Origin: an uncultured Planctomycetia bacterium
GTDB taxonomy: Bacteria > Omnitrophota > Gorgyraeia > 1-14-0-20-64-10
DNA: 64,000 bases
Reading direction: 5' to 3'
NCBI GenBank assembly: GCA_964373805.1
Contig: CAYJWF010000001.1
Coordinates: forward strand, 47,181 to 111,180
In this document: in pieces, positions 1,653-60,921 of the stretch
How positions within the stretch are numbered: the first letter of the stretch is position 1
Layout of the letters: each line of letters opens with the position of its first letter
The notes under the pieces: model-generated
The model's database searches: none
Seen by the model: only the letters and a program-made list of their open reading frames with translations
Told to the model about the DNA's origin: nothing
Translations under genes and position numbers: made by a program

Positions 1653-3095
1653 TCACGCCCTTCCGTTCAGACGATGGCTGACCTCTTTCATGAGCTGCTC
1701 CTGCAGATCTCCCAGGGGAACCCTTTTGAACACCTGCTCAAAGAATCCTTCCACGATGAGCCGTTCCGCCTCTGGCCGAGGGAGTCCTCGACTCATCAGG
1801 TAAAAGCTCTGCTCCTCATCCACAGGCCCGACGGCCACCCCATGGGTGCAGCGCACGTCGTCCGCCTCGATCTCCAACATAGGAACCGAGTCGGCTTTCG
1901 CTCCTTGGCTTAACAGGAGGTTCCGATTGGCCTGGTAGGCATCCGATTTCTGCGCCTCTTTTCGAATCCGAATCAGTCCCGTGTAGATCGATTGGGATCG
2001 ATCTTTGAGGGCGCTCTTGTACAGGAGGTCGCTTGTCGTGTGGGGGGCCCGATGGTCTTGAAGCGTGTGGAAGTCAAAATGTTGATCGGCTTGTTCAAAG
2101 AAGACTCCCAGCAGATCGGACCGACTCCCAGGTTCCGACAATTCCGTTTCCACCTGGGCTTTGGTCAGGCAACTTCCTAGGCCGACCAAGAGGTTGAAGA
2201 ATTGGGCATCCCGTTTCAAGACCGCCCGCTGGGTGTAAAGTTGCGTGGTGGCGAGGTTCCATCGTTGAAGGTGGAGGTACCGGAGGCTGGCCCCTTCTTG
2301 GATAACGATCTCCACCATCTCATCGGCAAAAAGCGGTTGTGCACCTACCCCTACGTTTTTGGCTGCGCCAGCGGCCAGTTCAGGGAAGTGCCGCACATCA
2401 GCGCGGCCTACCCCTACGTTTTTGGCTGCGCTGGGGCGCGTGGTGGCGCTTCCGACAGCGCCAGCCGCTGCGCTGGGGCGCGTGGTGGCGCTTCCGACAG
2501 CGCCAGCCGCCGCGCTAGCGGCCAATCTAGAAAAGTCCCGCGCATCAGCGCGGGGCTCCCCATCGGATCTCCTCTCATCGATCACGGTCACCTCAGCGCC
2601 GGCTCCCACGACCAAAAGGGTGTGGGGAAAGATCGGTCCGTTTCCCCCCTGGGCCTCCACCCAGCACCTGATAGGAAGTCTCACCCGGACTCCTTCCGGG
2701 ATGTAACAGAAGATCCCGGGATGGAAGAGGGCCTGATGCAGGGCGATGAATTTTGAGAGTCCCTGAGGGGTTCCGGTGCGAAAGAGATGCTCCTCGACCA
2801 GCTCCGGAAACTGTCGGAGGGCCGTGTCAAGGTCCGTTACGATGACCCCGTCCCGGACCGATTCCGAGGGGAGTTCCTCCCAGCCTGCCTGGAAGGCAGG
2901 AACGTCCTGCTCACCCTCGATCGAGGTTCTCGCTTTCGCGAGGATGGGTAAACTCCCGCGAGAATCAAACTCTCCCTCTGAGAGGTGAAGCTGGGCCGGG
3001 TCGGTCCGGCGCCACTCCTCGTCGGTCTTGGTCGGCCAGGGAAGGGCTTCGAACCGTTTCCAGGCCTCCTGCCGGAACTCCTTGACGTTAACCAA
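1653..3095 (-). CDS. sufD: Fe-S cluster assembly protein SufD carrying an in-frame repeat-element insertion
   Basis: SufD-like C-terminal half (LYTGLIRI..., SRGL...EAERLIVEGFF); ORF-track 5' extension to 3176 is Arg/Ser-rich and judged spurious, likely TTG start at 3095 overlapping sufB stop; contains ~70-aa Ala/Gly-rich insert encoded by palindromic repeat at 2345-2557. Confidence 0.7.
   Translation of the reverse strand: MVNVKEFRQEAWKRFEALPWPTKTDEEWRRTDPAQLHLSEGEFDSRGSLPILAKARTSIEGEQDVPAFQAGWEELPSESVRDGVIVTDLDTALRQFPELVEEHLFRTGTPQGLSKFIALHQALFHPGIFCYIPEGVRVRLPIRCWVEAQGGNGPIFPHTLLVVGAGAEVTVIDERRSDGEPRADARDFSRLAASAAAGAVGSATTRPSAAAGAVGSATTRPSAAKNVGVGRADVRHFPELAAGAAKNVGVGAQPLFADEMVEIVIQEGASLRYLHLQRWNLATTQLYTQRAVLKRDAQFFNLLVGLGSCLTKAQVETELSEPGSRSDLLGVFFEQADQHFDFHTLQDHRAPHTTSDLLYKSALKDRSQSIYTGLIRIRKEAQKSDAYQANRNLLLSQGAKADSVPMLEIEADDVRCTHGVAVGPVDEEQSFYLMSRGLPRPEAERLIVEGFFEQVFKRVPLGDLQEQLMKEVSHRLNGRA
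2345..2557. repeat. rearranged double copy of ~105-bp GC-rich palindromic element, in-frame inside sufD
   Basis: Units L (ctacccctacgtttttggctgcgc, x2), B (tggggcgcgtggtggcgcttccgacagcgccagccgc, perfect x2) and C (gcgctagcggccaatctagaaaagtcccgcgcatcagcgcggggctc); reverse complement of the copy at 28866-28972. Confidence 0.8.
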
Positions 3096-5574
3096 CCGAT
3101 CCCTCCATCTCCAATTGGATGAGCCGGTTGAGTTCCACCGCGTACTCGAGCGGCAGCTCCTTGGCGAATGCCTCAAAGAAGCCGTTCACAATCATCGTGG
3201 TCGCCTCCTGCTCTTTAAGTCCTCGGCTCATCAGGTAGAACAGCTGCTCCTCCCCCACCTTGCTCACCGTCGCCTCGTGTTCGATCCGCACCTGTTCGGC
3301 ATCAATCTCCATGGTGGGATAGGTATCCGATCGGGAGATTTCGTCCATCAGCAACGCATCGCAGCGAACCGAAGATTTCACATGCTCGGCCTGAGGATAG
3401 ACCTTCACCAACCCTCGGTAGCTGGTGCGGCCGCCGTCTTTGGAGATCGACTTTGACAGGATCGTGGAGCTGGTTTCTGAAGCGGCATGAACCATCTTGG
3501 CTCCGGCGTCTTGGTGCTGGCCCTTGCCAGAAAACGCCACCGAAACGACTTCCCCTCGGGCCTTGCGCCCCATCAAATAAACCCCGGGGTACTTCATGGT
3601 CAGCTTTGAGCCCAAATTTCCATCGAGCCATTCAACGATCGCATTCTCATAGGCGATGGCCCGTTTTGTGACCAGGTTGTACACGTTCTTTGACCAGTTC
3701 TGGATTGTCGTGTATCGGATGTGCGCGTGGGGCATGGCCACGAGCTCCACCACCGCCGAGTGAAGGCTGTCGGACGAATAGGTAGGAGCCGTGCAGTTGT
3801 GGACGGCAAAACCACGAGCCAGGTAAGCGTTCGGCGCACGGTCCATCTCGATGTTAAAGACCGGTCCTTCATAAGGAGCACGTCGAATTTCTTTCACCGG
3901 TACAAGGAAGGAATCTCCTTGGCGGCGGACTTCACCCATCTGCCTATTGGGGGAATAATAAATGATGTACTGATCCTGCCGAGTTATGGGTCGCCCCAGG
4001 ATCGTATCCTTTCCTCCTTTACGTAAGGAGATGGTTGCGTAATGGCCTTGACGTGCCAGAAGCTCCTGGAGCTGTCGAGCCAAGTTCAAAGAAACAGTCG
4101 AAGCGCGGAGCATGGTATGGGCTCGCCGATACCAACTCCCATCCCCCAGAAAGTACGTCTCCAACAGATGAGCCTGTTTCTCTGGTGGAAGCTCCATGAT
4201 CGTCTTGCTCAGCTGCTTCGTCGATGCCCCTTTGCCGCAGCTTTCAAGGCAAAGCTCCCTGAGAGGGCGGGAGTAGACTACCACGTTAATTCCATGTTTC
4301 TTGCGGTCTACGACTTCCATAGCCCGCTTGCCCGTCACCTCGCGAATAAGTTTCTTGGCCTCTTCCACCAGGGCCCGGTCTGTGGAGCCGAATGAGAGTG
4401 CGACAACCGGCATCCGCAGGGTCTTGTGGACAAACGTAGATCCTTCGGCCAGGTAGTAGCCTAGGAGGCGCAGAGCAGGTACGGTGTACCGAGGATCATC
4501 TTGGGTCTTCTTTGGGATTGGGAAGACGATGAAATCTCCTCGCTGAAGTTTGCCCGCTTCTATGAAATGGGGTTCCGTTGTAAGAAGCTTGGAGGTGCTC
4601 ACCTCTCCAAGCCAGTGGCCGCGCGCTTTCCGGGCGACGCGAACATCCTCTCGCTGGACACCCAGCACAGGGTGCTCCGGTGTGAGGCGAAAGCTGTTTC
4701 CAGAAGACAGTGGCTGGATCGTGATCAGCTCGCCACGGTAGGGACGCACGCGACTGGCCGCAACCTTTGCCTCCTCACCGTTACTGTTCAAAACGCTGTC
4801 GCCTGGCTGGATCGATTCGATGTTTACCCAGCGTTGGCCGGTAGAAACCTGTTCGCCTGCAGGCAGGCATCCCTCTATGTAATGCACGCTGGATCCCTCG
4901 TCGGCGATGATCAAGGTCCGTTCGAACTGGCCCATGTTCTCCGCGTTGATTCGGAAATAGGCCTGCAAGGGAATGGCTACCTTCACCCCTTTCGGAACGT
5001 AGATAAAGCTTCCTCCCGACCAGACCGCGGAGTTTAAAGCGGAAAACTTGTTGTCCGCTGAGGGGATCACCGTGCCAAAGTACTTTTTCACCAACTCCGG
5101 ATATTTCTTGAGGCCATCGTCCATCCCAAGGAAGATGACCCCTTGTTTCTCGAGATCTTCTCGAAGAGAGTGGTACACGACCTCAGACTCGTATTGGGCG
5201 GTGACCCCCGCGAGGAACTTCCGTTCCGCCTCTGGGATTCCCAATTTTTCAAAGGTGTTCTTGATATCCTCGGGAACCTCCTCCCAGCTTTTCTCCTGTT
5301 TATCCACCGGCTTCAGGTAGTAATGGATGTTGTCGAAGTGGATCTGGGAAAGGAGCGTCAAATCGGCCCAGGCCGGTAAGGGCTTCCGGTTGAAATGTTC
5401 CAGCGCCTTTAATCGAAGTTCCCGCATCCAATCCGGTTCCGACTTCATCCAGGAGATCTCCTCCACCACTTCCTTGGAGAGGCCCTTCTTGGCCTTGAAG
5501 AGGTAATGCTCCGGATCGTGGAATCCGTACTTCTCTTCGTAGTCTTTCCCGATATTGAGCGGTTTATCCGTCAT
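3088..5574 (-). CDS. sufB: Fe-S cluster assembly protein SufB interrupted by an intein (extein 470 aa + intein 358 aa)
   Basis: 828 aa instead of ~470; SufB N- and C-terminal halves; conserved EGC|TAP site split by insert beginning CLPAG and ending VHN followed by CTAPTYSS. Confidence 0.9.
3796..4869 (-). mobile_element. intein with LAGLIDADG homing-endonuclease domain inside sufB
   Basis: Insert residues 236-593: N-terminal Cys (codon 4867-4869), C-terminal His-Asn (3796-3801) followed by +1 Cys (3793-3795); two LAGLIDADG motifs [10 protein letters not shown] and [10 protein letters not shown]; exteins rejoin to canonical SufB ...[13 protein letters not shown]... Confidence 0.85.
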
Positions 5575-10875: not shown

Positions 10876-10947
10876 GGGGTCAGACCTGTACCAGGTACAA
10901 AATCGGCTCAACTTTTAAAAAGTTAGGCCCAAATTGTACCTGGTACC
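10876..10947. repeat. MITE-like palindromic element (GGGGTCAGACC + GTACCAGGTAC ... AACTTTTAAAAAGTT ... GTACCTGGTAC)
   Basis: Terminal inverted 12-13-mers around AT-rich central palindrome; near-identical copy at 48459-48521. Confidence 0.7.
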
Positions 10948-22619: not shown

Positions 22620-22637
22620 CGCGGACCGAAGGACCGC

Positions 22638-22672
22638 GTCATTGCGAGGAACGATGGTGACGAAGCAATCTC
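22638..22672. repeat. REP-like repeat family copy (GTCATTGCGAGGAACGATGGTGACGAAGCAATCTC)
   Basis: Family consensus GTCATTGCGAGGARCGAAGTGACGAAGCAATC; other copies 27483-27560, 44254-44322, 45811-45860, 49228-49263. Confidence 0.75.
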
Positions 22673-25889: not shown

Positions 25890-27503
25890 ATGCCGACACT
25901 AACCATTGACGGCAAGTCGATCACCGTGCCGGAGGGGACGACCGTCATTCAGGCGGCCGAAAGCCAAGGGATCTTCATCCCTCGGTACTGCTACCATCCG
26001 GGGCTTTCCATCGCGGGGAACTGCCGAATCTGTCTCGTGGAGATCGAGAAGAACCCCAAGCTGCAGATCGCCTGCAACACCCCGGTCGTCGAGGGAATGG
26101 TGGTCCGCACAAACTCCCCTCGGGTTTCGCAGGGCCAACAGTCGGTGCTCGAGTTTCTCCTCATCAACCACCCGTTGGACTGCCCGGTCTGCGACCAGTC
26201 CGGCGAGTGCGACCTTCAGAACTTCTACCTCAAGTACGGGCTGTACGATGCTCGGTTTAGGGAGCAAAAGGTCAAGAAGCCGAAGGTCGTTCCCATTGGC
26301 CCGACGGTGATGTTGGACGCCGAGCGTTGCATCCTCTGCTCCCGATGTGTCCGGTTTACCGATGAGATCACGAAGACCGGGGAGCTCGGGATTTTTAACC
26401 GCGGTGATCAGGCCGAGATCGGGCTGGGGCCGGGCAAGGTTCTGGACAACCGATATTCCGGCAACGTGGTGGACATCTGCCCGGTCGGGGCCTTGACCGA
26501 CCGGGATTTCCGGTTCAAGGCACGGGTCTGGTATCTTTCCACCTCGCCATCGATCTGCAACGGTTGTTCCCAAGGATGCAACATCGAACTCCATGATGTG
26601 CTCGATCGGCCGCATTTGAGCGGGGGCGCCCGGGTGATGCGGATAAAACCGCGGTATAACGCCGAGGTCAATCAATGGTGGATCTGCGATGAGGGCCGCT
26701 ACGGTTATAAATTCATCGACCAGGACCGCCTGCGGAAGGTACTTCGCCATGGAGTGGAGAGTTCCTGGGAAAAGGCGTTGTCGGAGTTGGCCGAGGGCTT
26801 AAGACAGGTCCATCTGGAGGCCGCACCGCATCGATTAGGGGTACTTCCATCGGCCCAACTGACCCTGGAGGAGCTGTTCCTCATCCGAAAGCTGTTCAAG
26901 GATCTTCTCGGGGTGCCGTATTGCACAGCGGATGTCCCAGCCCGGCCAGGGTATGCGGACGATTTTCTCATCAAGGCGGATAAGAACCCCAACACCCGAG
27001 GGGCGACTCTTCTGGGTTTAGCGGGCGAGGGGGTTCCTCCGGCTGCCCAGGTGATCGAGGAGATTCAAGCCGGTCGAATCAGAGCCCTCTGGGTCTTTGG
27101 CCACGATCTCGTGGAGCTGTTCGGGGAGGCCCTGGTTAAGGATTTGGCAAAAAGGCTATGCGTATTTATCTTTCAGGGTTCCAACGTGAACGGAACCGCT
27201 CGCTACGCCCATTGGGTCCTGCCCAGCGCCGTGTATGCCGAGAAGGAGGGGACCTTTGTGAACGTCCACGGGCGCCTCCAGCGGATCTTTCAGGCCTTTG
27301 AACCCCTTCCAGAGGCTCGATCCGATAGCGAGATTCTTCTGGATCTGTTCGATCACCTGAACCTGCCGGTTCCGGGCCGGACGGCAGAAGAGATCTTCCA
27401 CGCGGTGGGGGAGGCGGTACCCATCTTCTCGGGGCTCACCTACGAGAAGATCGGATTGCAGGGAACACAACTGGTGAACTCGTCATTGCGAGGAGCGAAG
27501 TGA
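25890..27503 (+). CDS. nuoG: NADH-quinone oxidoreductase subunit G (short form)
   Basis: N-terminal 2Fe-2S and 4Fe-4S Cys clusters (CYHPGLSIAGNCRICLVE, CPVCDQSGEC, CILCSRCVRF). Confidence 0.8.
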   Translation: MPTLTIDGKSITVPEGTTVIQAAESQGIFIPRYCYHPGLSIAGNCRICLVEIEKNPKLQIACNTPVVEGMVVRTNSPRVSQGQQSVLEFLLINHPLDCPVCDQSGECDLQNFYLKYGLYDARFREQKVKKPKVVPIGPTVMLDAERCILCSRCVRFTDEITKTGELGIFNRGDQAEIGLGPGKVLDNRYSGNVVDICPVGALTDRDFRFKARVWYLSTSPSICNGCSQGCNIELHDVLDRPHLSGGARVMRIKPRYNAEVNQWWICDEGRYGYKFIDQDRLRKVLRHGVESSWEKALSELAEGLRQVHLEAAPHRLGVLPSAQLTLEELFLIRKLFKDLLGVPYCTADVPARPGYADDFLIKADKNPNTRGATLLGLAGEGVPPAAQVIEEIQAGRIRALWVFGHDLVELFGEALVKDLAKRLCVFIFQGSNVNGTARYAHWVLPSAVYAEKEGTFVNVHGRLQRIFQAFEPLPEARSDSEILLDLFDHLNLPVPGRTAEEIFHAVGEAVPIFSGLTYEKIGLQGTQLVNSSLRGAK

Positions 27504-27560
27504 CGAAGCAATCCCGTTTTAAGGACGAGATTGCTTCGCCCCTGCGGGGCTCGCAATGAC
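27483..27560. repeat. REP-like repeat, inverted pair between nuoG and nuoH
   Basis: gtcattgcgaggagcgaagtgacgaagcaatc ... gagattgcttcgcccctgcggggctcgcaatgac; supplies nuoG TGA and nuoH ATG. Confidence 0.8.
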
Positions 27561-28638: not shown

Positions 28639-29382
28639 ATGCCGCGTAAACGGGAACTGACGTTCTGGGAACGAATTTACCTACCGGAGATTGTCCGGGG
28701 GGTGTGGATTACCTCTCGTCACTTCTTCGTTAATCTCTTTCTCCACACGGCACATCTCTTTGGGCTGTTCAAGGACCGCGCGGCCTCGGTCACCTTTCAG
28801 TATCCGGAGCAGCCCCGACCGTTGGCTCCCCGTTTAAGGACTCGGCATCGGTTAACGGTTCGGCCAGAGCCCCGCGCTGACGCGCGGGACTTTTCTGGAT
28901 TGGCCGCTGACGCAGCGGCTGGCGCTGTCGGAAGCGCCACCACGCGCTCCGGCGCAGCCAGAAACATAGAGGAAGGGACTCCCCGGTGTGTGGCCTGCAT
29001 GCTCTGCGAGACGGTCTGCCCGGCCAAATGCATCACGATCGTCGCTGGAGAGCACCCGGATCCGAACGTGGAGAAATATCCGATTCGGTTCGACATTGAT
29101 TTAGGGGTCTGCGTCTACTGCGGCTACTGTGTCGAGGCCTGTCCGGAGGATGCCATTCGGATGGACACCGAGATCCTGGACATCGCCGCCTATTCTAGGG
29201 CCCAGATGAAGCTGGACATCCATGAGCTCATGGATCCCAAGCTGCGCAAGCCGGTGAACCAGTGTGAACTAAGGTTTCCACACCAATGCGCCCTGCACGG
29301 TGGTCAGATGAAAGGGAACTGGCAAGACGTCTATGGGAAAACGGAACAGGGACTGTCCCCGCAGGGGACTGTCCCTGGCTAA
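28639..29382 (+). CDS. nuoI: NADH-quinone oxidoreductase subunit I with in-frame ~35-aa repeat-encoded insert and C-terminal extension
   Basis: Two 4Fe-4S motifs CVACMLCETVCP and CVYCGYCVEACP; insert PRADARDFSGLAADAAAGAVGSATTRSGAARN between N-terminal segment and first ferredoxin motif. Confidence 0.8.
   Translation: MPRKRELTFWERIYLPEIVRGVWITSRHFFVNLFLHTAHLFGLFKDRAASVTFQYPEQPRPLAPRLRTRHRLTVRPEPRADARDFSGLAADAAAGAVGSATTRSGAARNIEEGTPRCVACMLCETVCPAKCITIVAGEHPDPNVEKYPIRFDIDLGVCVYCGYCVEACPEDAIRMDTEILDIAAYSRAQMKLDIHELMDPKLRKPVNQCELRFPHQCALHGGQMKGNWQDVYGKTEQGLSPQGTVPG
28866..28972. repeat. single copy of the same ~105-bp palindromic element, in-frame inside nuoI
   Basis: gagccccgcgctgacgcgcgggacttttctggattggccgctgacgcagcggctggcgctgtcggaagcgccaccacgcgctccggcgcagccagaaacatagagg. 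Confidence 0.8.
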
Positions 29383-31704: not shown

Positions 31705-31708
31705 GAAT

Positions 31709-31748
31709 CAGGGGGACGCTCCATTTGGGGACACTCTACTGTGGAAAG
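31709..31748. repeat. 40-bp direct repeat copy 1 flanking the AbiE cassette
   Basis: cagggggacgctccatttggggacactctactgtggaaag; ~92% identical to 33075-33115. Confidence 0.7.
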
Positions 31749-31836
31749 AGCCTGCATTTTCCACAAGGGTCTGTCCCTTTTTGATTGAGTTATTTATCAT
31801 ATCAGTATACAATATTGTATACCACTGGTTTAATTT

Positions 31837-32394
31837 ATGAACAATTCAGAGCGGTTAAAAATACTCATGGAATCCGGAAGGTCGATATTTACGCCTCTGG
31901 ACATGCGCCTGTTGTGGCAGATGAATGCCTTGAGCGCCAAGATCAGCGCTGTGCGGATGGTGGAAAATGGGCTCATGATGAGGTTGGCCAATGGCTATTA
32001 TGCTCTGAATGATCGGTATAACCCGTATGAACTCGCCAACCGCCTGGTCTCGCCTTCCTACGTCTCGTTTCAGGCCTCTCTTTTTCACGCGGGGATCAAT
32101 TTTCAAGCGCGTCGGGAGATCGGATCCGTGGCGACTCGAGACCGCCAAAGGAAAGTGGGGGACGTCCTTTATACCTATGCCGCCATGAAGAAGGAGTTGT
32201 TTTTCGGCATGGAAGGTGTGGTGACTCGCGAAGGCGTGTCGATAGCGAGCCCTGAGCGCGCGATCCTGGACAGTTTTTACTTCGGGTATTTACCGGATAT
32301 CGACGATGCCGGAAAATTAAATAAAACCACTTTGGCGAAATTAAGCGCTGGGTACCCTAAGACCGTTCAAAAGAAGGTGAAAAATCTTTTATGA
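31837..32394 (+). CDS. AbiEi-family antitoxin (type IV TA transcriptional regulator)
   Basis: 185 aa, precedes and overlaps an AbiEii-like NTase gene; AbiEi-like N-terminal wHTH region. Confidence 0.5.
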   Translation: MNNSERLKILMESGRSIFTPLDMRLLWQMNALSAKISAVRMVENGLMMRLANGYYALNDRYNPYELANRLVSPSYVSFQASLFHAGINFQARREIGSVATRDRQRKVGDVLYTYAAMKKELFFGMEGVVTREGVSIASPERAILDSFYFGYLPDIDDAGKLNKTTLAKLSAGYPKTVQKKVKNLL

Positions 32395-33140
32395 GCCGCT
32401 TGTTTGAACGGGACACGCATAAAAGGTATCTTGCGCTTTTACTGACAGAGATGGCAAAGGCATTTCCTGAGAAGATCGCGTTTAAAGGCGGCACCTGCGC
32501 TCATTTTTTTTACAACCTTCCGCGATTCTCATTTGATCTGGATTTCGATATGGTCCGAGCCTTTAAGGCCGTCGATGTCGATCGATTCCGTGAGCTTGTG
32601 GAAAAACATGGACAAGCGAAGGATTTTTATGACAAGGCAAACACCTTATTTTGCCTTTTTGATTACGGGAAAGGCTATCCCAATATCAAAATCGAGCTGA
32701 ATAAGCGTGTGTGGACCCATAATGTTTATAAACCCGTCTGGTTGATGGGGGTGCCGATTTCTATTGCGGATGAAACCACGGTTCTTACGAATAAGCTGGT
32801 CGCGCTCACGGATCGAAAGACCGCGGTCGCGAGAGACTTATACGATATCTGGTACTTTTTAAAGGCGGGGTTTCCGGTCCACGATGCCCTTGTCCTCGAG
32901 CGCACCGGCAAGGATGCCCGAACCTATTTGGCATCCATCACCGCGTTTATCAAGAAAACCTATACGCCCCGTAACGTGTTGCACGGGCTGGGTGATGCGC
33001 TCGATGAAAAACAGAAGGCTTGGGCAAAGGATCATCTTGTTTCAGAAACCATACAGGAGATCAATCGGCGTGAGTCGGGGGGACGCTCCATTTTGGGACA
33101 CTCTACTGCGGAAAGAACCGCGTCCCCATCGCCACCCTAA
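32391..33140 (+). CDS. AbiEii/AbiGii-family nucleotidyltransferase toxin (DUF1814)
   Basis: FKGGTCAHFFYNLPRFSFDLDFD NTase core; C-terminal 20 codons read through direct repeat copy 2. Confidence 0.6.
   Translation: MSRLFERDTHKRYLALLLTEMAKAFPEKIAFKGGTCAHFFYNLPRFSFDLDFDMVRAFKAVDVDRFRELVEKHGQAKDFYDKANTLFCLFDYGKGYPNIKIELNKRVWTHNVYKPVWLMGVPISIADETTVLTNKLVALTDRKTAVARDLYDIWYFLKAGFPVHDALVLERTGKDARTYLASITAFIKKTYTPRNVLHGLGDALDEKQKAWAKDHLVSETIQEINRRESGGRSILGHSTAERTASPSPP
33075..33115. repeat. 40-bp direct repeat copy 2
   Basis: tcggggggacgctccattttgggacactctactgcggaaag. Confidence 0.7.
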
Positions 33141-46244: not shown

Positions 46245-46679
46245 ATGACCCGCCCTCCGGTGTTCATGAAAGGAAATCCTGATCTTGGGTATGGACATCC
46301 TAGGCCCTCCGGTGGGACGGAGTTGTACGCCTGGCTCTTCATGCGGCTCTCCGGGATTCTGCTGTTGGTGTTGGCCCTCGGGCATTTCTTCATCATGCAT
46401 CTTTTTAACAGCGTTCACACCATCGACTACGATTTTGTCGCGGCCCGGTACCTGGGACTTTTCTGGCGTGGCTATGATCTCGCCCTGCTGTGGCTGGCGA
46501 TGATCCACGGGATCAATGGAGCCCGCATGCTGGCCGACGATTACCTGCGTCCACCGGTTCGAGGGTGGGTGGTGAAGGGGCTGTATCTCGTGGGAATTTT
46601 GTTTCTGGTGTTGGGCACTTGGGTGATTGTAGCGTTCCAACCGATGGTGCCAGGCACCAAAACCCTGAAACTTTTATAA
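46245..46679 (+). CDS. sdhD: succinate dehydrogenase membrane anchor subunit
   Basis: 144 aa hydrophobic; position between sdhC and sdhA; last codons read into repeat. Confidence 0.65.
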   Translation: MTRPPVFMKGNPDLGYGHPRPSGGTELYAWLFMRLSGILLLVLALGHFFIMHLFNSVHTIDYDFVAARYLGLFWRGYDLALLWLAMIHGINGARMLADDYLRPPVRGWVVKGLYLVGILFLVLGTWVIVAFQPMVPGTKTLKLL

Positions 46680-46691
46680 AGTTAAGCCAAA

Positions 46692-46705
<14 letters not shown>
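46646..46705. repeat. MITE-like element: GGTGCCAGGCACC ... AACTTTTATAAAGTT ... GGTGCCAGGCAC
   Basis: Spans sdhD stop and sdhA start; supplies ATGGTGCCAGGCAC = MVPGT. Confidence 0.7.
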
Positions 46706-48458
<1,753 letters not shown>

Positions 48459-48521
48459 ATGGTACCAGGTACAATTTCGGCTCAACTTTTTAAAAGTTAT
48501 ACCGATTTTGTACCTGGTACC
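48459..48521. repeat. MITE-like element (GGTACCAGGTACA ... AACTTTTTAAAAGTT ... TGTACCTGGTACC)
   Basis: Between sdhA stop and sdhB; near-identical to 10887-10947. Confidence 0.75.
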
Positions 48522-48540: not shown

Positions 48541-49239
48541 ATGCAAGTAACCTTTAAGATTCTACGGTTCAATCCCGAGCAGGACCCCAAGCCGCACTGG
48601 GAGACCTACCCGGTGGAGTTGGAGCCGACCGATCGGGTGTTGGACGGCCTGGAGGCGATCAAGGGACGGCTGGATGGGACCTTGGCCTTGCGGCGCTCCT
48701 GCGCCCACGGGATCTGCGGCTCCGATGCCATGCTGGTGAATGGCCGGAATCGGTTGGCCTGCAAGGTATTGGTTAAAAATTTAAAGCAGCCGATCGCCAT
48801 TGAACCGATGCGGGGTTTTAAGGTTTTGAAGGACCTGATCGTTGACATGGAAGGTTTCTTTGCCAAGTACCGATCGATGAAGCCGTATCTGATCGAGGCC
48901 GGCCCAGCCCCAGAAAAGGAACGGCTTCAGTCGCCGGCCGAACGGGAACGGTTCGACGACACCACCAAGTGTATCCTCTGTGGGGCCTGCACGACCAGTT
49001 GCCCCTCTTTCTGGTCCAATCCGGATTATGTGGGACCGGCGGCGATCGTCCAGGCCCATCGGTTTCTTTTCGACAGCCGTGACGAGGGGAAGGAAGAGCG
49101 CCTGAAGGTTTTAAATACCTCGGATGGCGTCTGGCGCTGCCGAACGGTCTTTAATTGTGTGGAAGCCTGCCCGCGCGGCATCAACGTGACCCGCGCCATC
49201 GGCGAAGTGAAACTCGCGCTCATGAGTGCGTCATTGTGA
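48541..49239 (+). CDS. sdhB: succinate dehydrogenase iron-sulfur subunit
   Basis: CAHGICGSDAMLVNG, CILCGACTTSCP, CVEACP clusters; start ATG 48541; stop inside REP-like repeat. Confidence 0.85.
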   Translation: MQVTFKILRFNPEQDPKPHWETYPVELEPTDRVLDGLEAIKGRLDGTLALRRSCAHGICGSDAMLVNGRNRLACKVLVKNLKQPIAIEPMRGFKVLKDLIVDMEGFFAKYRSMKPYLIEAGPAPEKERLQSPAERERFDDTTKCILCGACTTSCPSFWSNPDYVGPAAIVQAHRFLFDSRDEGKEERLKVLNTSDGVWRCRTVFNCVEACPRGINVTRAIGEVKLALMSASL

Positions 49240-49263
49240 GGAACGAAGTGACGAAGCAATCTC
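49228..49263. repeat. REP-like repeat copy at sdhB stop
   Basis: gcgtcattgtgaggaacgaagtgacgaagcaatctc. Confidence 0.75.
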
Positions 49264-49478
49264 GGTTTAAGGGATCGCCCGCCCCGGCCCCTGGTTCCCA
49301 AGCCGGGCCGGGGAGTCGGCCTGGCACCTTTGGGCCAGAGGCCTTCCCTCCGGCGTCTCCCCCCGACAACACGCAGCGTCACCTCTACTGCCCCACGTGC
49401 GGCCAGCGTCTCACCAATCGCTCGTGCAAATGGTGGTGCCCGACCTGCGGCTACCACGAATCCTGCGCCGATGGCTAA
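49249..49478 (+). CDS. small zinc-ribbon protein (uncertain)
   Basis: C-terminal CPTCGQRLTNRSCKWWCPTCGYHESC; possible GTG start inside repeat; mostly low-complexity. Confidence 0.3.
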
Positions 49479-49637: not shown

Positions 49638-52600
49638 ATGCGAAATCGAATCGTAGCTGGTTTAACCGTTCTAGCATTCCTGCTTGGCCAAACGCCCGCC
49701 TACCCCTTTGACCACGGGGAAGGAGGGAAGCGTCCCGGCTTTGGGTCAGCCGTTCTTCGCCCTCTCAGCCCGGATCAGTCGGATTGGATGAGGCAGGCCA
49801 TTGAAGCCGGTTTGGAGGAGCCCGCCGGAGAAGAAACGCGCTCGTTTGAGGAGCTGCTTTTAGAGATTCTGGACGAGGAGAAAGCCAGAAACCGCTCCAG
49901 CCGGGATTCAAAGAGACTGTTGAATCGGTTTGTGGAGTTTTTTGAAGAGGATGCAAGGAGCGGTTCTTCGGTGCCCGAGACTGTGACTGTGGAGGCAAGG
50001 GCCAGGAGGATCTTATTAAGGCAGACCCCCGGAGTAACCGTGGCTAAATTACGCCAAGAGACAGACAACCCCAGTAAGAGGTTTTCCCTTCGGAACCTTC
50101 CGGGAAGGAAAGGGGAAATGGCCTTGCCTAACGTATGGGTCTTGCGGGAACAGGTAGCAAGGACTGCTCGGATTCTCGAGGGGTTAAAGATTACCCAAGA
50201 CAAGGGGCCTATCTCCGAGCCTCCTACTTTAGAATCAACCCTGACACCTACAGAGTACTTAGCTAGGTTAAGAACGCACCTGTTCTATTCCAACCAACAG
50301 CAACAGTACCTTTCGGTCCCGACGTACGGGGTCGTTGGTTTTTTTGATCCGGAGGAATACCGCCGCGCGGGAGAAGAAACACCCTATGCGGTTTTACCTG
50401 TCTTGGCCGTCCGACAAATCGGCCTTCAGCCTTCCCTCCGAGCCTTTGACTTGGCCATCGGAATGGTGGACAACGGGCTCAAGAAGGTCGAAATGCGAGA
50501 ATCGGGAACCGACCATCCGCCTTTTCTTCTTCTCCACTTTGCAAGGCCACTGATCGATGCCGAAAGCGGCCGGAGAGGTCTGGACCGGCTGGCCGTTTTT
50601 CTGCTCAAGACACCCTGGCCTGAGCTTCCCAAGTTGGCGGGGGATAGACCGCTTGAGACTCTTCCCGATGAGGAATTTCTTAACGCGGTTCTGCAATCTT
50701 TACTGGCGGAGAGAGAACATCTCGAGCAGGACGCGGGACGGCTTCGGCAGATTGCCTTTGAGGAAGGGGAACCGGTTTCTATTCAGATAGAGAAACGGGA
50801 ATCCCTTCTCCGGTTAGCCCTAGCGGAGAGGCTTGTTCCTCGGTCAGGCTATCAACCTTACACGGCAGCCAGCGCCGTGAGACTCGCTCGGTGGATGGGC
50901 CGAACCGTGAGGGAGAGGCAGTTCATCCGACAGCATATGGAGTTGTTGATAGAGGAGGCGAACCTGATCGAGGCCTCCGGAGCTGTGACGTGGAGTCGTT
51001 CGTCTAAAACGGAGAAAGCCATAGAGGCACTTTGGGAGAGGTTTCACCGGTGGAAGAGGCGCACAGGGATTTTGCAAGAGCTTGGGACCTTGGATCTGGC
51101 TGAGATCCCGGGGGCTGCAGAAAGGGTTGAGCAGCTCGACAAGAAGCTTCTGATTCCTAAAAAGGACGTTTCGATGGAAGCTTGGCGGCTGTATCTGCCG
51201 TTGCTTCGGCTGGTTCTTGCCAGAGATTCCCTGGGCCAATGGGTGCTCAACGACCAGGAGGCTACCTACCTGCTCAATCGCATGGAAAAATTCCGTCAGG
51301 AGTTGCTGAATGGGGTTCTCGTGATGGAGAGAACGTTAGCCTCGATGACCCCGGGAGAGGCTCAGGCGATCCTATCTTTTGAACTTAACCAGGCACTTCT
51401 TGACCCGCTGATTCAGAAACCGCTGAAAACCCCTCGGGTGACGCTGCAAAAGGCCCTGCTGAAGGAATGTGAGCGGTTGTTCCAGGTTTCTTTGGGCAGG
51501 TCCCCCACGGCTTTGGCCCTGTTAAGAGACGAGCGAGAGGCTTTATTCAAAGAGGTTCGCCAGGTTCAGGGCAGATTCTGGGCCAGCCTTCTGGGGAACT
51601 TGTCGGAAGCAGAGAAGGCTCTGACGGAGTTCGAGCGACTGGATGAGCGTTTGAGGGCGTTCGGTCCGCGGCTTGCAGGCAGGGACGTAGGGGTGGCTTC
51701 GGAGGGCGGCGGCGTGCCACCCCTACCACTGTCTCAAGAAGGAATTTTGTCTTTCCTAGACAGGATGAAGGAAAAGATAACAACACCAGCGAATTTGGGA
51801 CGACTGGAAAATCCTTCTGGGCTTGATCTGTACCGATCCCTTTTGGATATCGCCCGGCTCGTCCCAGAAGGCCGTGTGAGAGAGGCTTTCGAAAGGAGCC
51901 GGTTGGATGCAGCGATCTCGCTGGAGGAATGGGAGCGGCCCTTTTTGGGTTCGTTCCGGCGGAGACTGGCTGAGCGGATTGCCCAAGAGGTCCTGGAGGA
52001 TGCCCAGACCGCTCCGCCAACACAGCAGAAGGCAGCCGAACAGCGGATCTTAGAGGCAGCGGAACTGGTAGGGGAGTTTCCACAGATCGCAGGGAAACTT
52101 TTAACCACCGATCGGGCCAAGGCGAAGGCTTTACTCTCGGCTTTTACCACGGAATTGTCGGATAAGGGAAACCGGCTCCTTCGAGAATTTGTAGTGGCTA
52201 AGGCCAGCCGGGAACCTTTCCCAGAAGCCAAGGAGGATAAGCTCAGAAAACGTTACCGCAGTCTCCATTCCGGTAGAGGAGTCCCAACGCTGTACGAACG
52301 GGTAGCCTTGGATCTGGATCCCTCCCTTCTTCCCAACCGACCCATTCCTTCCGGATCGGTTTCGCCAACGATTGTAAGGAAGGAAGATTCCACCGCCGGC
52401 CTGGAGGAGAAAAAGGGCGGTTCCATTTTGGATAGGGAAGGGGAGAAGCAGATCCGCGAGGCCACTCAGGCATTAGACGGAGCCCTCCACCCCATTGGGA
52501 ACCCGGTCGTTTTTTTCTCCAAGGTCGAAGCTGCGGTCGTTTTTTTCTCCAAGGTCGAAGCTGCGCTGAAGGCCATTGGAGAAGTGCCTTCTTCTCGATG

Positions 52601-55600
52601 GCCTAACCTTTTTCAAGAGGAGTTTAAACGACTTAGGGATCAATTGAGAATTGCCGAGAGGCATCCTGACCAGAAGGAGTTTGCCCAGAGGATGCGGCAC
52701 TCCCTCTCTGATTTTCGGGACCGGTGGAACAGGTCTCTTGCCCAAGAGGGAATTTCGTCTGGCCGGGAACAAAAGCCCGCCAGTGAGAAAAAGGTCGATG
52801 GGGGAATTATCCCTCAACAGAGGCCTTTGCCTAAGCGACCATCGAAACGGCAGCGGATCATTGAGGAGCTGTCGCGGTTGCCGGATGAGAGAAAACGTCT
52901 CAAATCCCTTCGCCTGGCGGCTGGATTTCGGTCTCCCCATGAGTTAGAAAAAGCAGCCGGGGTGGCCTGGGCGACGGTATCCCGAATGGAATCCGGCAAG
53001 CGAGGAATCGGTCCCCACGTCAGGCGAAAGGTGAAAGGGCTATTGGAAAAGGAGTTGGGTCTACGACTGACGTTTCACTTCCGTTTGATAGAGTTTCCTT
53101 TAGAGCGCAGTGTCAATGTCTTGCCGACGACCGAGGATCGGTTTACTTTCCTCAAGGACGAACTTCTGGGATGGACCAAGCAAGAACTCGCTCAGCGAGC
53201 GAACGCCATCAGGAGTCTCCCTTCTCCTGCTTTGGACACGCGCTACCGCCATGCGCCGATGGATCAAACCCATTTCTGGATTCGGCGTTCCATCCGGGAT
53301 GCTCTGGAACGTGGTTTATCGGAGGAGTTTCAACGCCCTGTACGGCTTGACGGACGTCTTCGGATTGTTACGAATTCGGTTGCCGGGCATCTCAGAGCTT
53401 TGCCCAATGCCGAGGCGCGTCTGACCTGGTTGTTGGAGGAGGAACTTGTCTGGTATCGGAGCGAATTTCTTAGAGAAGCGGGGTTCAAAGAGCATGGGAA
53501 GGTACAGCCCCCTCCGAATCAGCAATCCCAGGCGTTGCAGAGGTGGGAGAAACTCCGTCGCGCGCTCGAGCGAGGTTTGGCCAAGCGGGGAGAGCAGATT
53601 TCTCTTGATGCCAACTTGCTCCCTCAGACCGGCCTGGAGGAACGGAACCAGAGCAGACCCAGTGGGTTGGACCTAGGGCAACAGGTGAGGCGGCTGGTGG
53701 ATACGGCGAAGGGGTTAGCCTCCTCCGGACAGGAAGGGGATGCCCTAGGGGTGCTGGATGAGGCGCTTCGGTTAGATCCTGAGAATGCCCATACCTTGGT
53801 GGAGAAGGCGAGCCTGTTGGACCGACGGCGGAGCTTAAGAAAAGCCCTTCAGGCCATTAATCGAGCCCTCTTGATCGATCGCCGTCGCATCCGTGAACTT
53901 GGGATCGGCCCGATTCGTGGTCGAGATAAATCTGGACGTATTTATCTGGTCATCCGAACGATTCGGGCAAGGATCCTGTTTCACTTAAGTCAACAAGAAA
54001 GGGATCCGACGCAGCGTCTTCATTTCCATCGAGGAGCAGAGAATTCGGTTAAGCAGGCCCTCCAGTGGGATCCGACGGATCCTTGGGCGGTGAAACAAGC
54101 GGTTCAGATCATTCATAGGCGTCCAGTGGAGCACGAGAGCTATGAACAAAGGTGGGAGGATGCCCAGGAAGTGGCGGCTCCCCTCTTGGCCAGAGTGGGC
54201 AGAGGGGAGTTTCGAGAGGAAGATGACCGACTTTCTATTGCACAGATACTTCATGATCTCAAGTGGACCGAGAGAATGGTTACGTTTCTTGAGGAAACGG
54301 TGTTACCCCAGAACCCCGGGTGGCCTCCAGCGTTAAAACTCTTGAGTGAGGGAAAGCGCGATTTAAATAAACCCACCGCTGGTTTGGAGGAGCGGTGGGT
54401 GCGTGTGATTGCCGACGATGCCACGGGTGGCGCGGAGTTGGTGTTGGAGCTCGCCAAGAGAGGTAAGAGGGCCCTTCTCGTCTCTCTGGACACCCCGGAT
54501 AAGCTTCTCAAGCGGTATCGGGTTATTGTGTACAACACCCTGGCTCGGAATCTGTCTCCCCGAGAGACGCGCCTTCGCACAGGCCAGGTCAAGGGTTCCA
54601 TTCTTCAACCGGGAGAGTGGGCCTACCTTAAGATCGATTCGACCCTCCGTGGGAATTGGCTGGATGGGATCATCGCCTGGACCAAGAGGCTTCAACCGGA
54701 GGTGATCTTGGTGGCGCCGGCCATTGTTTCACAGGGAAGAGCGACCCGACAGGGAGTCCATGAACTCCTCGAGGGAGGGAGTTGGATCCCCCTGCATCAA
54801 ACCATGTACCGTGACCTGATTGATCCGGGACTGGTTCAATCAGAATCCAATCTTCAGGAATATCTGCGGCAGCGGGTCTCGGCGAAGGTGGAGCTCCTCA
54901 ACCGAGAGGTCATTGAGCAAGGGTCTGAAGAGGTTCGCAAACGGCTCGCCGGTGTGGAAAAAGGGACTTACCTCGTGGCGGATGCCACCGAGAGCCGACA
55001 CCTTGAATCCATAGCTGAAGCTGTCCATGAGCTTCCCCGACCGATCCTTTGTTCCGGTTCTGCCGGCCTCTTCGGCACCCTGGTCAAGGAAGAGAAATCG
55101 GTTGAATTAGTGCCCTGGGTGGAACAGCTCATCAAAAAGACTTCACGGGGCAGAGGGAAGGTGTTGGTACTGGCCGGCTCTCGTCACCCAAGATCAGACG
55201 AACAGGTCAGAAGAGCTCTCGAGAGTCTTCCGGGTCGCGTGGCCCTGCTGAAGATTTCCACGGAAGGCTTCCAAAGAAGGCAGACTCGAGCTGCTGGGAT
55301 TCGGCGTGCCCAGCGGAAGATCCATCGAGCTTGGCAGCAGGCCCAAGGTGTCATCCTCCAGTTCGAGCCGCCGCGTCTTAAGAAACGGAGCCACCAAACA
55401 CAGCGTGCCATGGCGGAATTTTACCGTGAACTGTTCGGCACAAGGGAGATTCAAGGTCAGCTCGGCCTTCTCGTTGTTTTTGGGGGAGACACCTTGGGTA
55501 CAGTTCTAACGGGCTTCCAAGCCGGGTTTACCGCTACAGGAGAAGTGGCTCCTCAGATCTCTTACGGGCAGCTCATCACCATGGATCGACCGCCTTTGCC

Positions 55601-60009: not shown

Positions 60010-60921
60010 TTAGTACCGTTCGATCTGGTTGAGCAGGATGTAGCTTAGGTAATCCTTTTGGGCGATCAAGCGTAAGGCCCCCTTGCGCCGGCGCCAAAAG
60101 GCGTACAGGCTGATCCGCAGGTTCAAGGCGGCCGCCTCCTCCTTGTAAAAGCGGAGGTAGTAAAGTTCCACCGCCTGACGCTGGGAAGGCGGCAACCCCT
60201 TCACCGTTCCATGGACCCGTTCGTGATGGTAAGGGTTGAGGAACTGGTACGGGACGCATCGAAGATACGAGTAGCCGGTGAGCTTGCGCTGAGCGGGATC
60301 CGGAGGATTCTCCAGGGTCCGGTAGTTTTTCAAAAGGGTGGGCCAAAAGGTCTGCTTGAAAACCCAGCGGAATCCGGTGGTCTCGAAGGGAGGGATCGCG
60401 GCGTAGTTCAAGCCCCGCCGATGCGGGACTCTTCTCGACGGGCCGCTATCGCAGCCAGAAACGTAGAGGAAGAGGCACTCTTTAAAGGTTCGGTAAACAA
60501 TTCTCTGAAAATCGTTCTGGGAGAAGGCGCGGTAGTCTCCTCGGCAGTAAAGCTTCTCCTCCATGGACCGCAGGACAAAACGGCATCCCTCGGTCGAAAG
60601 GAGAAATTCCCAACAGGAAAGGGCCCATTGGATGGCCGGCTGAAACTCGGCCAGCAGCTCTCCATAGGCCTGGCCGAAGCCGGAGCTGTCTTGGGATTGA
60701 TGGGCTTTCGCGGCCTGGGCGACCAGTTTTTGAATGGGGGCTTTTCCCCGCTGAAAGCAGGGAGCCTTCGGCCGCCGAAAGAGCTGAGGCAACCATAGGT
60801 CTAGAGGGGGCGCTTCCTCCTCGACAAAGGAAAAAGGATCCTTCAACAGAATCATTGGACGCCTCGGCGATAACCGCGCATCTTGAAGTAAGTATAGCAC
60901 AGGACCTCCCCTCGTTGACAA
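60010..60921 (-). CDS. protein with sigma-70 region-4-like C-terminal HTH
   Basis: LPPSQRQAVELYYLRFYKEEAAALNLRISLYAFWRRRKGALRL resembles sigma70 r4. Confidence 0.35.
   Translation of the reverse strand: MSTRGGPVLYLLQDARLSPRRPMILLKDPFSFVEEEAPPLDLWLPQLFRRPKAPCFQRGKAPIQKLVAQAAKAHQSQDSSGFGQAYGELLAEFQPAIQWALSCWEFLLSTEGCRFVLRSMEEKLYCRGDYRAFSQNDFQRIVYRTFKECLFLYVSGCDSGPSRRVPHRRGLNYAAIPPFETTGFRWVFKQTFWPTLLKNYRTLENPPDPAQRKLTGYSYLRCVPYQFLNPYHHERVHGTVKGLPPSQRQAVELYYLRFYKEEAAALNLRISLYAFWRRRKGALRLIAQKDYLSYILLNQIERY

Follow-up and report, generated by a model that had tools for sequence, protein, structure and literature searches.

The Repeat in nuoI and sufD

We analysed a window of 64 kb, i.e., the whole stretch of contig CAYJWF010000001.1 presented above, which is part of a metagenome-assembled source genome; all window copies of the element described here come from this stretch. 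Homologs of its NuoI and SufD proteins are, where named, attributed to "Candidatus Omnitrophica/Omnitrophota". The subject of the study is a short, hairpin-rich repeat that lies in-frame in nuoI, which encodes a subunit of NADH-quinone oxidoreductase (complex I), and again in sufD, which encodes an Fe-S cluster assembly protein. The features of nuoI are as follows:

28639..29382, + strand: nuoI, NADH-quinone oxidoreductase subunit I, 247 aa (open reading frame; Pfam 4Fe-4S dicluster domains; homologs named NuoI)
28864..28975, + strand: element copy 1, long form A-B-C, 105 nt or 35 codons net
28871..28888, + strand: hairpin A1 of copy 1, CCCGCGC-TGAC-GCGCGGG, 7-bp stem and 4-nt loop, followed by ACTTTTCT (predicted fold)
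28917..28958, + strand: module B, 42 nt or 14 codons, a double hairpin with GCGCAGC direct repeats on either side
28959..28975, + strand: module C tail, CAGAAACATAGAGGAAG (consensus C-A-R-A-A-A-C-R-TAG-R-GG-W-AG from four units)

The open reading frame of nuoI encodes 247 aa, with exactly the sequence quoted in the initial annotation, and the insert placed there at 28866-28972 is correct to within a few bases. Its ends are ambiguous by a few nucleotides: 28864-28968 according to the BLAST gap, or 28870-28974 if consistency with the orthologs is required. We aligned 120 NuoI sequences (119 homologs and that of the window). The segment from RHRLTVR to GTPRC consists of exactly two residues (EE, DE, ED, DD and the like) in all 119 other proteins, compared to 37 residues in the window; the insert is absent from 119 of 119 homologs and, among these, is not conserved in other taxa. 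Empty sites were also found at the DNA level in two relatives (L003 and L007), where the sequence reads CGG|GAGGA(A/G)GG. Excision of 105 nt from nuoI produces …VR(PE/EE)GTPRC… and brings back the length seen in the orthologs as well as the conserved positions of Gly and Pro; the predicted peptide across the insert junction is DFSGLAADAAAGAVGSATTR, and its canonical, insert-free counterpart is …LTVREEGTPR…. The insertion point is four residues ahead of the first cluster-ligating Cys. All columns that are invariant in the 120 sequences are intact, including both CxxCxxCxxxCP motifs. It should be noted that the length of ~160-180 aa given earlier as typical of NuoI does not apply to this clade, in which the proteins have 190-247 aa, mostly 200-220.

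The second host gene carries a larger insert, in inverted orientation:

1653..3095, - strand: sufD, Fe-S cluster assembly protein SufD, 480 aa (orthologs ~390-415 aa)
2408..2555, - strand: element copy 2a, form A-B-B-C, 147/148 nt, with identical tandem 42-nt B modules at 2425-2466 and 2467-2508
2345..2407, - strand: element copy 2b, short form A'-C, 63 nt, directly abutting copy 2a

The in-frame element in nuoI is, as had been proposed, the reverse complement of the sufD element, matching part of the insert there with 92% identity over 92 nt (2467-2558 versus 28867-28958). A 33-mer, GCGGCTGGCGCTGTCGGAAGCGCCACCACGCGC, occurs at 28915-28947 (+) and at 2436-2468 and 2478-2510 (-), and had no matches in 100 shuffles. 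The repeat reported earlier in sufD is real but composite: instead of a single copy, there is A-B-B-C followed by A'-C. Copies 2a and 2b together make a net insert of 210 nt, or 70 codons (2346-2555), that is absent from 113 of 113 SufD homologs. In the alignment of 114 SufD sequences (113 and the window), the loop from DERR to DEMVEI has 8-12 residues in 98 cases and 81 residues in the window. Excision of the 210 nt yields DERRSDGEGAQPLFADEMVEI, which again has the length of the orthologs and their conserved Gly and Pro positions; the conserved residues of SufD are intact. For the inserts taken together, L003, L007, L005 and L008 show empty sites in their DNA.

An alignment to Escherichia coli SufD obtained with HMMER set the insert against native sequence and was not used; instead, the insert was mapped with an AlphaFold2 (AF2) model of SufD, which has a mean predicted local distance difference test score (pLDDT) of 87, a predicted template modelling score (pTM) of 0.86 and a beta-helix core above 90. 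The insert (approximately residues 178-250) is the sole long low-confidence stretch of this model and is located between the strands 168-176 and 255-265. The same host loop is independently expanded, by 15-47 aa of unrelated sequences, in 15 of the 114 sequences, from several phyla; this turn is a recurrent permissive loop. Homologs with an expanded loop include P0144, P0146, P0168, P0192, P0212, P0224, P0225, P0237 and P0238. Separately, the variable N-terminal region of SufD has a window-specific insertion of ~18 aa, EGEFDSRGSLPILAKART, encoded at 2925-2978 (-); the DNA there contains small hairpins, e.g., CTCGC-GAAA-GCGAG, and bears no relation to the element.

Modular Anatomy and Frame Constraint

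The element is a modular string of short hairpins, not one long palindrome. Its unit, A-C, has 63 nt, and zero, one or two copies of the 42-nt module B stand between A and C. The observed forms have 60 nt (third site, described below), 63 nt (A'-C in sufD), 105 nt (nuoI) and 147 nt (A-B-B-C in sufD), all of which are multiples of three. The GC content of the element is 65-70%, compared to 58-59% for the host genes.

Module A (~47 nt) begins with hairpin A1, CCCGCGC-TGAY-GCGCGGG, which folds in four of the four units, with stems of 7, 7, 7 and 5 bp. The hairpin in nuoI differs from its counterpart in sufD by a single loop base. In the second unit of sufD, where GTAG stands immediately before the hairpin GCCGCGC-TGAT-GTGCGGC, the outer pair has been swapped from C-G to G-C and there is one G.T pair, and in copy 3 the stem is shortened symmetrically. 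Module B in nuoI forms two hairpins, GGCGCT-GTCGGA-AGCGCC and GCGC-TCCG-GCGC, the second of which has the general form GCGC-NNNN-GCGC. Module C is a purine-rich tail, CARAAACRTAGRGGWAG, with GTAG in three of the four units and ATAG in nuoI. Hairpin A1 followed by the T-tract of ACTTTTCT was called terminator-like on the sense strand of both nuoI and sufD; a terminator function was not adopted, the T-tract feature being unconserved in the short units.

On the strand read in nuoI and sufD, stop codons occur as TGA in the hairpin loops and as TAG in the tail, and close two of the three frames. The nuoI copy has no stop codon in any of the three frames of the opposite strand, one of which is the frame used at the third site; four of the six frames are stop-free. 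Since the lengths are multiples of three and most frames are stop-free, a copy carried by a gene leaves the protein untruncated. The two hosts read the same element strand in the same frame, as stated in the initial annotation, and the result is a near-identical peptide, PRADARDFS(G/R)LAA(D/S)AAAGAVGSATTR. This peptide is shared because that strand has a single frame free of stop codons, and the common strand and the near-identity of the peptides are therefore no evidence for a peptide function. The nuoI and sufD copies differ at seven nucleotides; two of the changes are silent and five alter four residues, whereas the stems are kept or re-registered. Differences that are mostly nonsynonymous, with stems kept, indicate that there is no purifying selection at the peptide level; this substitution pattern is the signature of a DNA- or RNA-level element rather than of a selected peptide.

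A Third Copy and Relatives in Other Genomes

The element is not confined to the two sites. A third copy lies in another gene of the window:

60010..60921, - strand: host gene 3, conserved hypothetical gene, 303 aa, without Pfam match
60413..60472, + strand: element copy 3, short form A-C, 60 nt, with hairpin CCCGC-CGAT-GCGGG (BLAST; nhmmer E = 5e-19)

Copy 3 is translated from the opposite element strand (…LYVSGCDSGPSRRVPHRRGL…) and adds ~20 aa that are absent from 14 of 14 aligned homologs. The representative library contains 34 homologs of this gene, most of which align as two stretches split at residues ~160-180, i.e., at the position of the element. Altogether, the 64 kb contain four units, distributed over three unlinked loci, in both orientations and at two levels of divergence (92% versus ~73-80%).

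Relatives of module B were found in other genes of related genomes, namely in the sufD of another lineage (L002) and in a syntenic relative known from a groundwater metagenome contig (L003/L005):

L002:2166-2207: module-B-like, in sufD of the other lineage, in a different loop (~86% identity, local-alignment z = 11-12)
L005:2219-2262: module-B-like, in cbiX of the syntenic relative, coinciding with a 16-codon lineage-specific insertion in CbiX
L003:12818-12866: module-B-like, in nuoN of the syntenic relative, coinciding with a 15-codon lineage-specific insertion in NuoN
L003:15157-15202: module-B-like, in nuoL of the syntenic relative, coinciding with a 15-codon lineage-specific insertion in NuoL

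These relatives are in-frame, have 42-48 nt and correspond to insertions of 14-16 codons that are lineage-specific relative to the window orthologs. They are independent insertions. The copies in L003/L005 are read from the opposite strand, giving SAE(T/A)PG(A/V)AS…. In six copies of module B from three genomes, the framework GGCYG-NN-GCT-loop-AGC-N'N'-CWCCA is kept, while the NN positions vary and yet stay complementary (GC/CG/UA and CG/GC, two covarying stem positions). Hairpin 1 is 100% paired and the stems overall are 97-100% paired; none of 500 shuffles reaches the covariation score. The family thus has seven independent sites (three in the window, one in L002 and three in L003/L005), and all seven are intragenic and in-frame. 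The claim that one palindromic element is present in-frame in two unrelated housekeeping genes is therefore borne out: the NuoI homologs lack the insert, and further sites exist.

Two other similarities were not accepted. A second SufD insert of L002, in the same loop as that of the window, was rejected as a relative of the element (z = 0-2), and a weak similarity in the SufD of L008 was judged to be compositional. The NuoG of the syntenic relative also has an 18-aa lineage-specific insertion (L003:8393-8446), which is a perfect 12-bp hairpin, CCGTTCACCCT…AGGGTGAACGG; it is unrelated in sequence to the element (z = -3.5).

Interpretation and Alternative Explanations

We consider it probable that the nuoI segment is a copy of a non-autonomous, hairpin-rich family, similar to repetitive extragenic palindromes (REPs) or Rickettsia palindromic elements (RPEs), and that its copies are tolerated as extra protein loops. 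The repeat relationship, the polarity of insertion, the build from modules, lengths that keep the frame, the constraint on usable frames, the conservation of hairpins and the independent insertions of module-B relatives are observed directly. According to this explanation, the family would have spread or been copied within this Omnitrophota-like genome. A copy located in a gene would be translated as an Ala/Gly/Ser/Thr-rich peptide of 20-70 residues, looped out of the fold, and copies would persist where such a loop is tolerated: in the beta-helix turn of SufD, in the turn before the first 4Fe-4S motif of NuoI and at the inter-segment position of the third protein. The copying would occur at the DNA level, possibly on a single strand and guided by hairpins, in the manner of IS200-like elements or of REP-associated tyrosine transposases (RAYTs). 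Three points are inferred, for a metagenome-assembled contig: translation and tolerance of the inserts, as opposed to their removal; continued function of the host proteins; and an origin of the copies through mobility or copying at the DNA level.

Several results weigh against this explanation. Extra length is not generally permitted at the NuoI site, which has two residues in 119 homologs and stands four residues before a Cys ligand, so that tolerance at this site is an assumption; the AF2 model of NuoI, built on a 20-sequence alignment, was unusable (pLDDT 49) and gives no structural placement of the insert. There are no terminal inverted repeats, as the predicted fold consists of three local hairpins with unpaired termini (the units begin with CCCCGCG… and end with …GRGGWAG). 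No clean target-site duplication is seen at the four junctions, whose ends are defined to a few bases only. No transposase, RAYT or other mobility gene was found among the window open reading frames scanned with Pfam. The links of the L003/L005 copies to module B have weak profile scores (E = 0.011-0.39); they are also supported by architecture, covariation and the coincidence with indels. A module A pattern had no true further copy in 185,579 GTDB species genomes, an exact core of module B and a gapped module A gave 0 exact-pattern matches in JGI metagenomes, and a degenerate module B pattern gave 0 matches in IMG/VR. Exact-pattern scans miss diverged copies, including the L002 variant, and absence here means that there is no near-identical copy. 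The lone match of the degenerate module A genome scan (L001) was rejected as a chance match in an unrelated gene of an Actinomycetota metagenome-assembled genome. In addition, the 72-aa insert peptide, a short and low-complexity query, matched nothing at E <= 0.01 in a collection of 5.8 billion proteins; no Rfam family was matched by the element and no Pfam family by the inserted peptides, and a plasmid BLAST search returned no copy.

The junctions were also considered on their own. Their similarities are short, unequal and purine-rich (GGGGAG/GGGGTAG, AGAG/AGAG and CGTAGTTCAAG/CGTAGAGGAAG), and the empty site of nuoI is natively GAGGAAGG, which resembles the tail of the element. Models with terminal inverted repeats or target-site duplications were rejected; the AG…AG spacing is 3n+1, whereas the net insertion is 3n.

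These junction similarities are compatible with a one-off ectopic duplication or gene conversion, in which a sufD-resident piece would have been transferred to nuoI, and an older piece to the third gene, by illegitimate or microhomology-mediated recombination, with no dedicated mobility and no family. The small number of sites (three in 64 kb), the empty exact-pattern scans of public collections and the lack of a transposase nearby in the window would fit such events. We regard this as unlikely, however: the four units occupy three unlinked loci, in both orientations and with two degrees of divergence, module-B relatives are inserted at different genes of two other genomes, and the stems are held by compensatory change, as is typical of REP-like families that propagate and not of random duplications. 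It is more improbable still that the inserted peptide is a selected functional module of Fe-S proteins, such as a linker, an interaction motif or a regulatory loop, with the palindromes being secondary. Two Fe-S-related proteins do use the same frame and obtain near-identical peptides, and the inserts are kept in-frame in essential genes. Conversely, the shared frame is the sole stop-free one on that strand; the third copy and the module-B copies of the relatives are read oppositely and encode unrelated peptides; most nuoI/sufD substitutions alter residues while the stems are kept; and the peptide has no Pfam match and is predicted to be disordered in SufD.

A metagenome-assembled contig may raise the suspicion of chimeric assembly at repeats or of a decay of nuoI and sufD into pseudogenes, all the more as the NuoI site is length-invariant elsewhere. 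This is very improbable: the three independent insertions are in-frame, are exact multiples of three and have perfectly conserved flanks, chimeric joins are not expected to restore the frame every time, the conserved residues of both proteins are all intact, and the locus is syntenic with the single nuo and suf operons of a relative. We find it hardly credible that the inserts are removed before maturity, either as small intervening sequences cut from the mRNA or by protein splicing, leaving canonical NuoI and SufD. The inserts are hairpin-rich and precisely bounded, their excision restores the canonical ortholog sequence, and a genuine intein in the neighbouring sufB indicates that splicing elements exist in this genome. 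Nevertheless, with 60-210 nt the inserts fall far short of the size of group I/II introns or inteins, they have no Cys/Ser/Thr at the downstream junction, no terminal His-Asn and no Rfam match, and strict multiples of three with stop-free frames would be unneeded if the segments were excised from RNA.

The explanation that we prefer, a mobile or copied hairpin family tolerated as protein loops, can be extended. The clade may possess a palindromic family that is adapted to coding sequence, with modules of 3n length that are mostly stop-free, compensated stems and a preferential or exclusive location in genes. Targeting of hairpins or single-stranded DNA in transcribed regions would make it a systematic generator of surface loops, similar to RPEs and independently arisen in free-living bacteria. 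We put this forward tentatively, as a conjecture that is rather doubtful at present. Several subunits of complex I, as well as proteins of Fe-S assembly, are among the hosts across genomes. If this were true, such a family would reach even the length-invariant NuoI turn beside a 4Fe-4S ligand.

Complex I is affected repeatedly (NuoI here; NuoL, NuoN and NuoG in the relative), and so is the Suf machinery. The NuoI case is a natural experiment on how well a conserved Fe-S subunit tolerates an extra loop four residues from a cluster ligand. It is also of importance for annotation, since such inserts lengthen proteins, split matches to hidden Markov models and can pass for novel domains.

The C-Terminus of NuoI and Other Repeats of the Window

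A ~45-aa C-terminal extension of NuoI had been attributed to tandem palindromes at 29353-29380. Most of this region is conserved in the clade: residues ~199-235 are shared by the 120 sequences (P200, R203, C209, F213-P214-H215, C217, G226 and W228), and only the last 13 residues, TEQGLSPQGTVPG, are lineage-variable. About nine residues of this tail do derive from palindromes, the positions of which are corrected as follows:

29349..29375, + strand: two GGGACTGTCCC palindromes at the 3' end of nuoI (29349-29359 and 29365-29375; 2 matches versus 0.08 expected)

The pair encodes GLSP and GTVP, within the variable 13-aa tail. The nuoI tail of the nearest relative has the same pair (L007:6731 and 6771). 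These palindromes are a separate type of repeat, outside the A-B-C element.

Other palindromic repeat families of the window are mostly located between genes or at gene ends, unlike the A-C/B family. Near-perfect palindromes of ~60 nt, GTACCAGGTAC…AAAAGTT…GTACCTGGTAC, are found in intergenic spacers at 10888-10947, 46647-46706 and 48462-48521, one of them upstream of cstA and the others flanking a fumarate reductase/succinate dehydrogenase flavoprotein gene. A repeat that starts with CGTC-ATTGCGAGGAGCGAAGTGACGAAGCAAT occurs at gene ends (22632-22654, 27476-27560 and 49224-49272) and looks like a CGTC-tagged REP family; its inverted dimer at 27482-27560, between nuoG and nuoH, supplies the NuoG end SSLRGAK and the stop codon. 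A 13-nt palindrome, GGGGTCWGACCCC, is present in six copies versus 0.27 expected (6867, 7851, 7872, 19837, 43586 and 59322). Both GGGGTCWGACCCC and GGGACTGTCCC fit the motif GGGGWSAS, which has been reported in inverted repeats around genes of RAYT-like (TIRYT) transposases (PMC3733652); we take this fit as a lead only to a tie with such transposases.

Neighbouring genes show further peculiarities. SufB, encoded next to the element-bearing sufD (3088-5574, -), has 828 aa compared to 470 aa in the syntenic relative and contains an intein, with the Pfam domains LAGLIDADG_3 (homing endonuclease) and Intein_splicing and a split SUFBD core. The nuoI gene is parted from the oppositely oriented nuoJ-N by a toxin cassette, an aldo-keto reductase and an AAA/DUF4143 ATPase, in place of which the relative has a glycosyltransferase gene. 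Direct repeats of 48 nt that are 90% identical (31705-31752 and 33072-33119) bracket a two-gene cassette with an AbiEii-type toxin (32391-33140). A single open reading frame of 2835 aa (49638-58145, +) combines TPR repeats, four-carbon acid sugar kinase domains (SBD_N and NBD_C) and PdxA; it is either an unusual giant fusion or a read-through of several genes.

Comparison with Known Repeat Systems

Inteins share with the element the in-frame insertion in a conserved suf gene and the absence from orthologs. They differ in having at least ~130 aa, splicing blocks and a +1 nucleophile, and in being excised, whereas the element adds 20-70 low-complexity residues without these features. Bacterial interspersed mosaic elements of enterobacteria are comparable in being mosaics of REP hairpins and conserved linkers with variable numbers of tandem modules; however, they lie outside genes and have effects on mRNA stability, DNA gyrase and the binding of integration host factor, while the mosaics described here are presumably translated. 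MITEs (miniature transposable elements with inverted repeats) that form in-frame fusions are known in bacteria, including QMITE1 of Coxiella, ERIC, the MITEs of Anabaena and the Correia elements (PMC10969869, PMC5896051). They are likewise small, non-autonomous repeats that can lie within open reading frames and contribute coding sequence. Their defining features are terminal inverted repeats and target-site duplications; neither was found here.

The similarity to intragenic REPs is closer. Di Nocera et al. (2013) described REPs with GTAG or CGTC tags that are located inside genes, alone, in pairs or in clusters, and encode 20-82 aa; their numbers are highest in the Planctomycetes-Verrucomicrobia-Chlamydiae (PVC) bacterium Opitutus terrae, and they are also present in Thauera and Stenotrophomonas, and the sub-families of REPs differ by complementary stem changes (PMC3733652). 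Those REPs have stems of 5-13 bp, loops of 2-4 nt and complementary stem variants, compared to 7 bp and 4 nt for A1 and 6 bp for the first hairpin of B. They occur as singles, tandem head-to-tail dimers and clusters, single copies encoding 20-30 aa and clusters 43-82 aa. In the second unit of sufD, GTAG adjoins a 7-bp GC hairpin (GTAG|GCCGCGC…), as in REPs; the tag adjoins the hairpin in only one of the four units, the others having AGAG-C, GGAG-C and CAAG. In the tails of three units, GTAG is 7-11 nt from the unit end, and module B carries neither a GTAG nor a CGTC tag. On sequence grounds, the GTAG features are compatible with a GTAG-tagged REP super-family that is mobilised by RAYTs, which would imply a mobilising activity; none of the window open reading frames scanned for a RAYT encodes one. 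Classical REPs have high copy numbers and are mainly intergenic, located 3' of genes, whereas seven of the seven sites of the present family are intragenic.

RPEs integrate in-frame in many genes of Rickettsia (Ogata et al. 2000; PMC10969869, PMC3733652). Like the element, they are short hairpin-forming repeats (~100-150 bp in RPEs), inserted in-frame in unrelated housekeeping genes, and encode no transposase. RPEs are always in-frame, several of their families are present in one genome, and they are translated into peptides judged to be compatible with the fold, as is presumed for the element. The general features of this class are found here: several unlinked loci, in-frame intragenic location, absence from orthologs and hairpins conserved between copies. 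The element does not belong to the Rickettsia RPE families proper (RPE-1 to -10). The hosts of RPEs are obligate intracellular Alphaproteobacteria, and the present host is an Omnitrophota-like, free-living groundwater lineage; RPEs are AT-rich and the element is GC-rich, the unlikeness in sequence being deduced from composition and taxonomy. The explicit modularity, a 63-nt unit with a nested or tandem 42-nt module, is another difference, and the tag of RPE-4 and RPE-6 is CGTC, whereas the tail here contains GTAG. The sequence family and the lineage are new, and the phenomenon, in-frame repeats that add protein loops, is rarely documented but already known. In-frame palindromic repeats are best documented in Rickettsia and a few REP-rich bacteria, and the present lineage suggests a wider spread.

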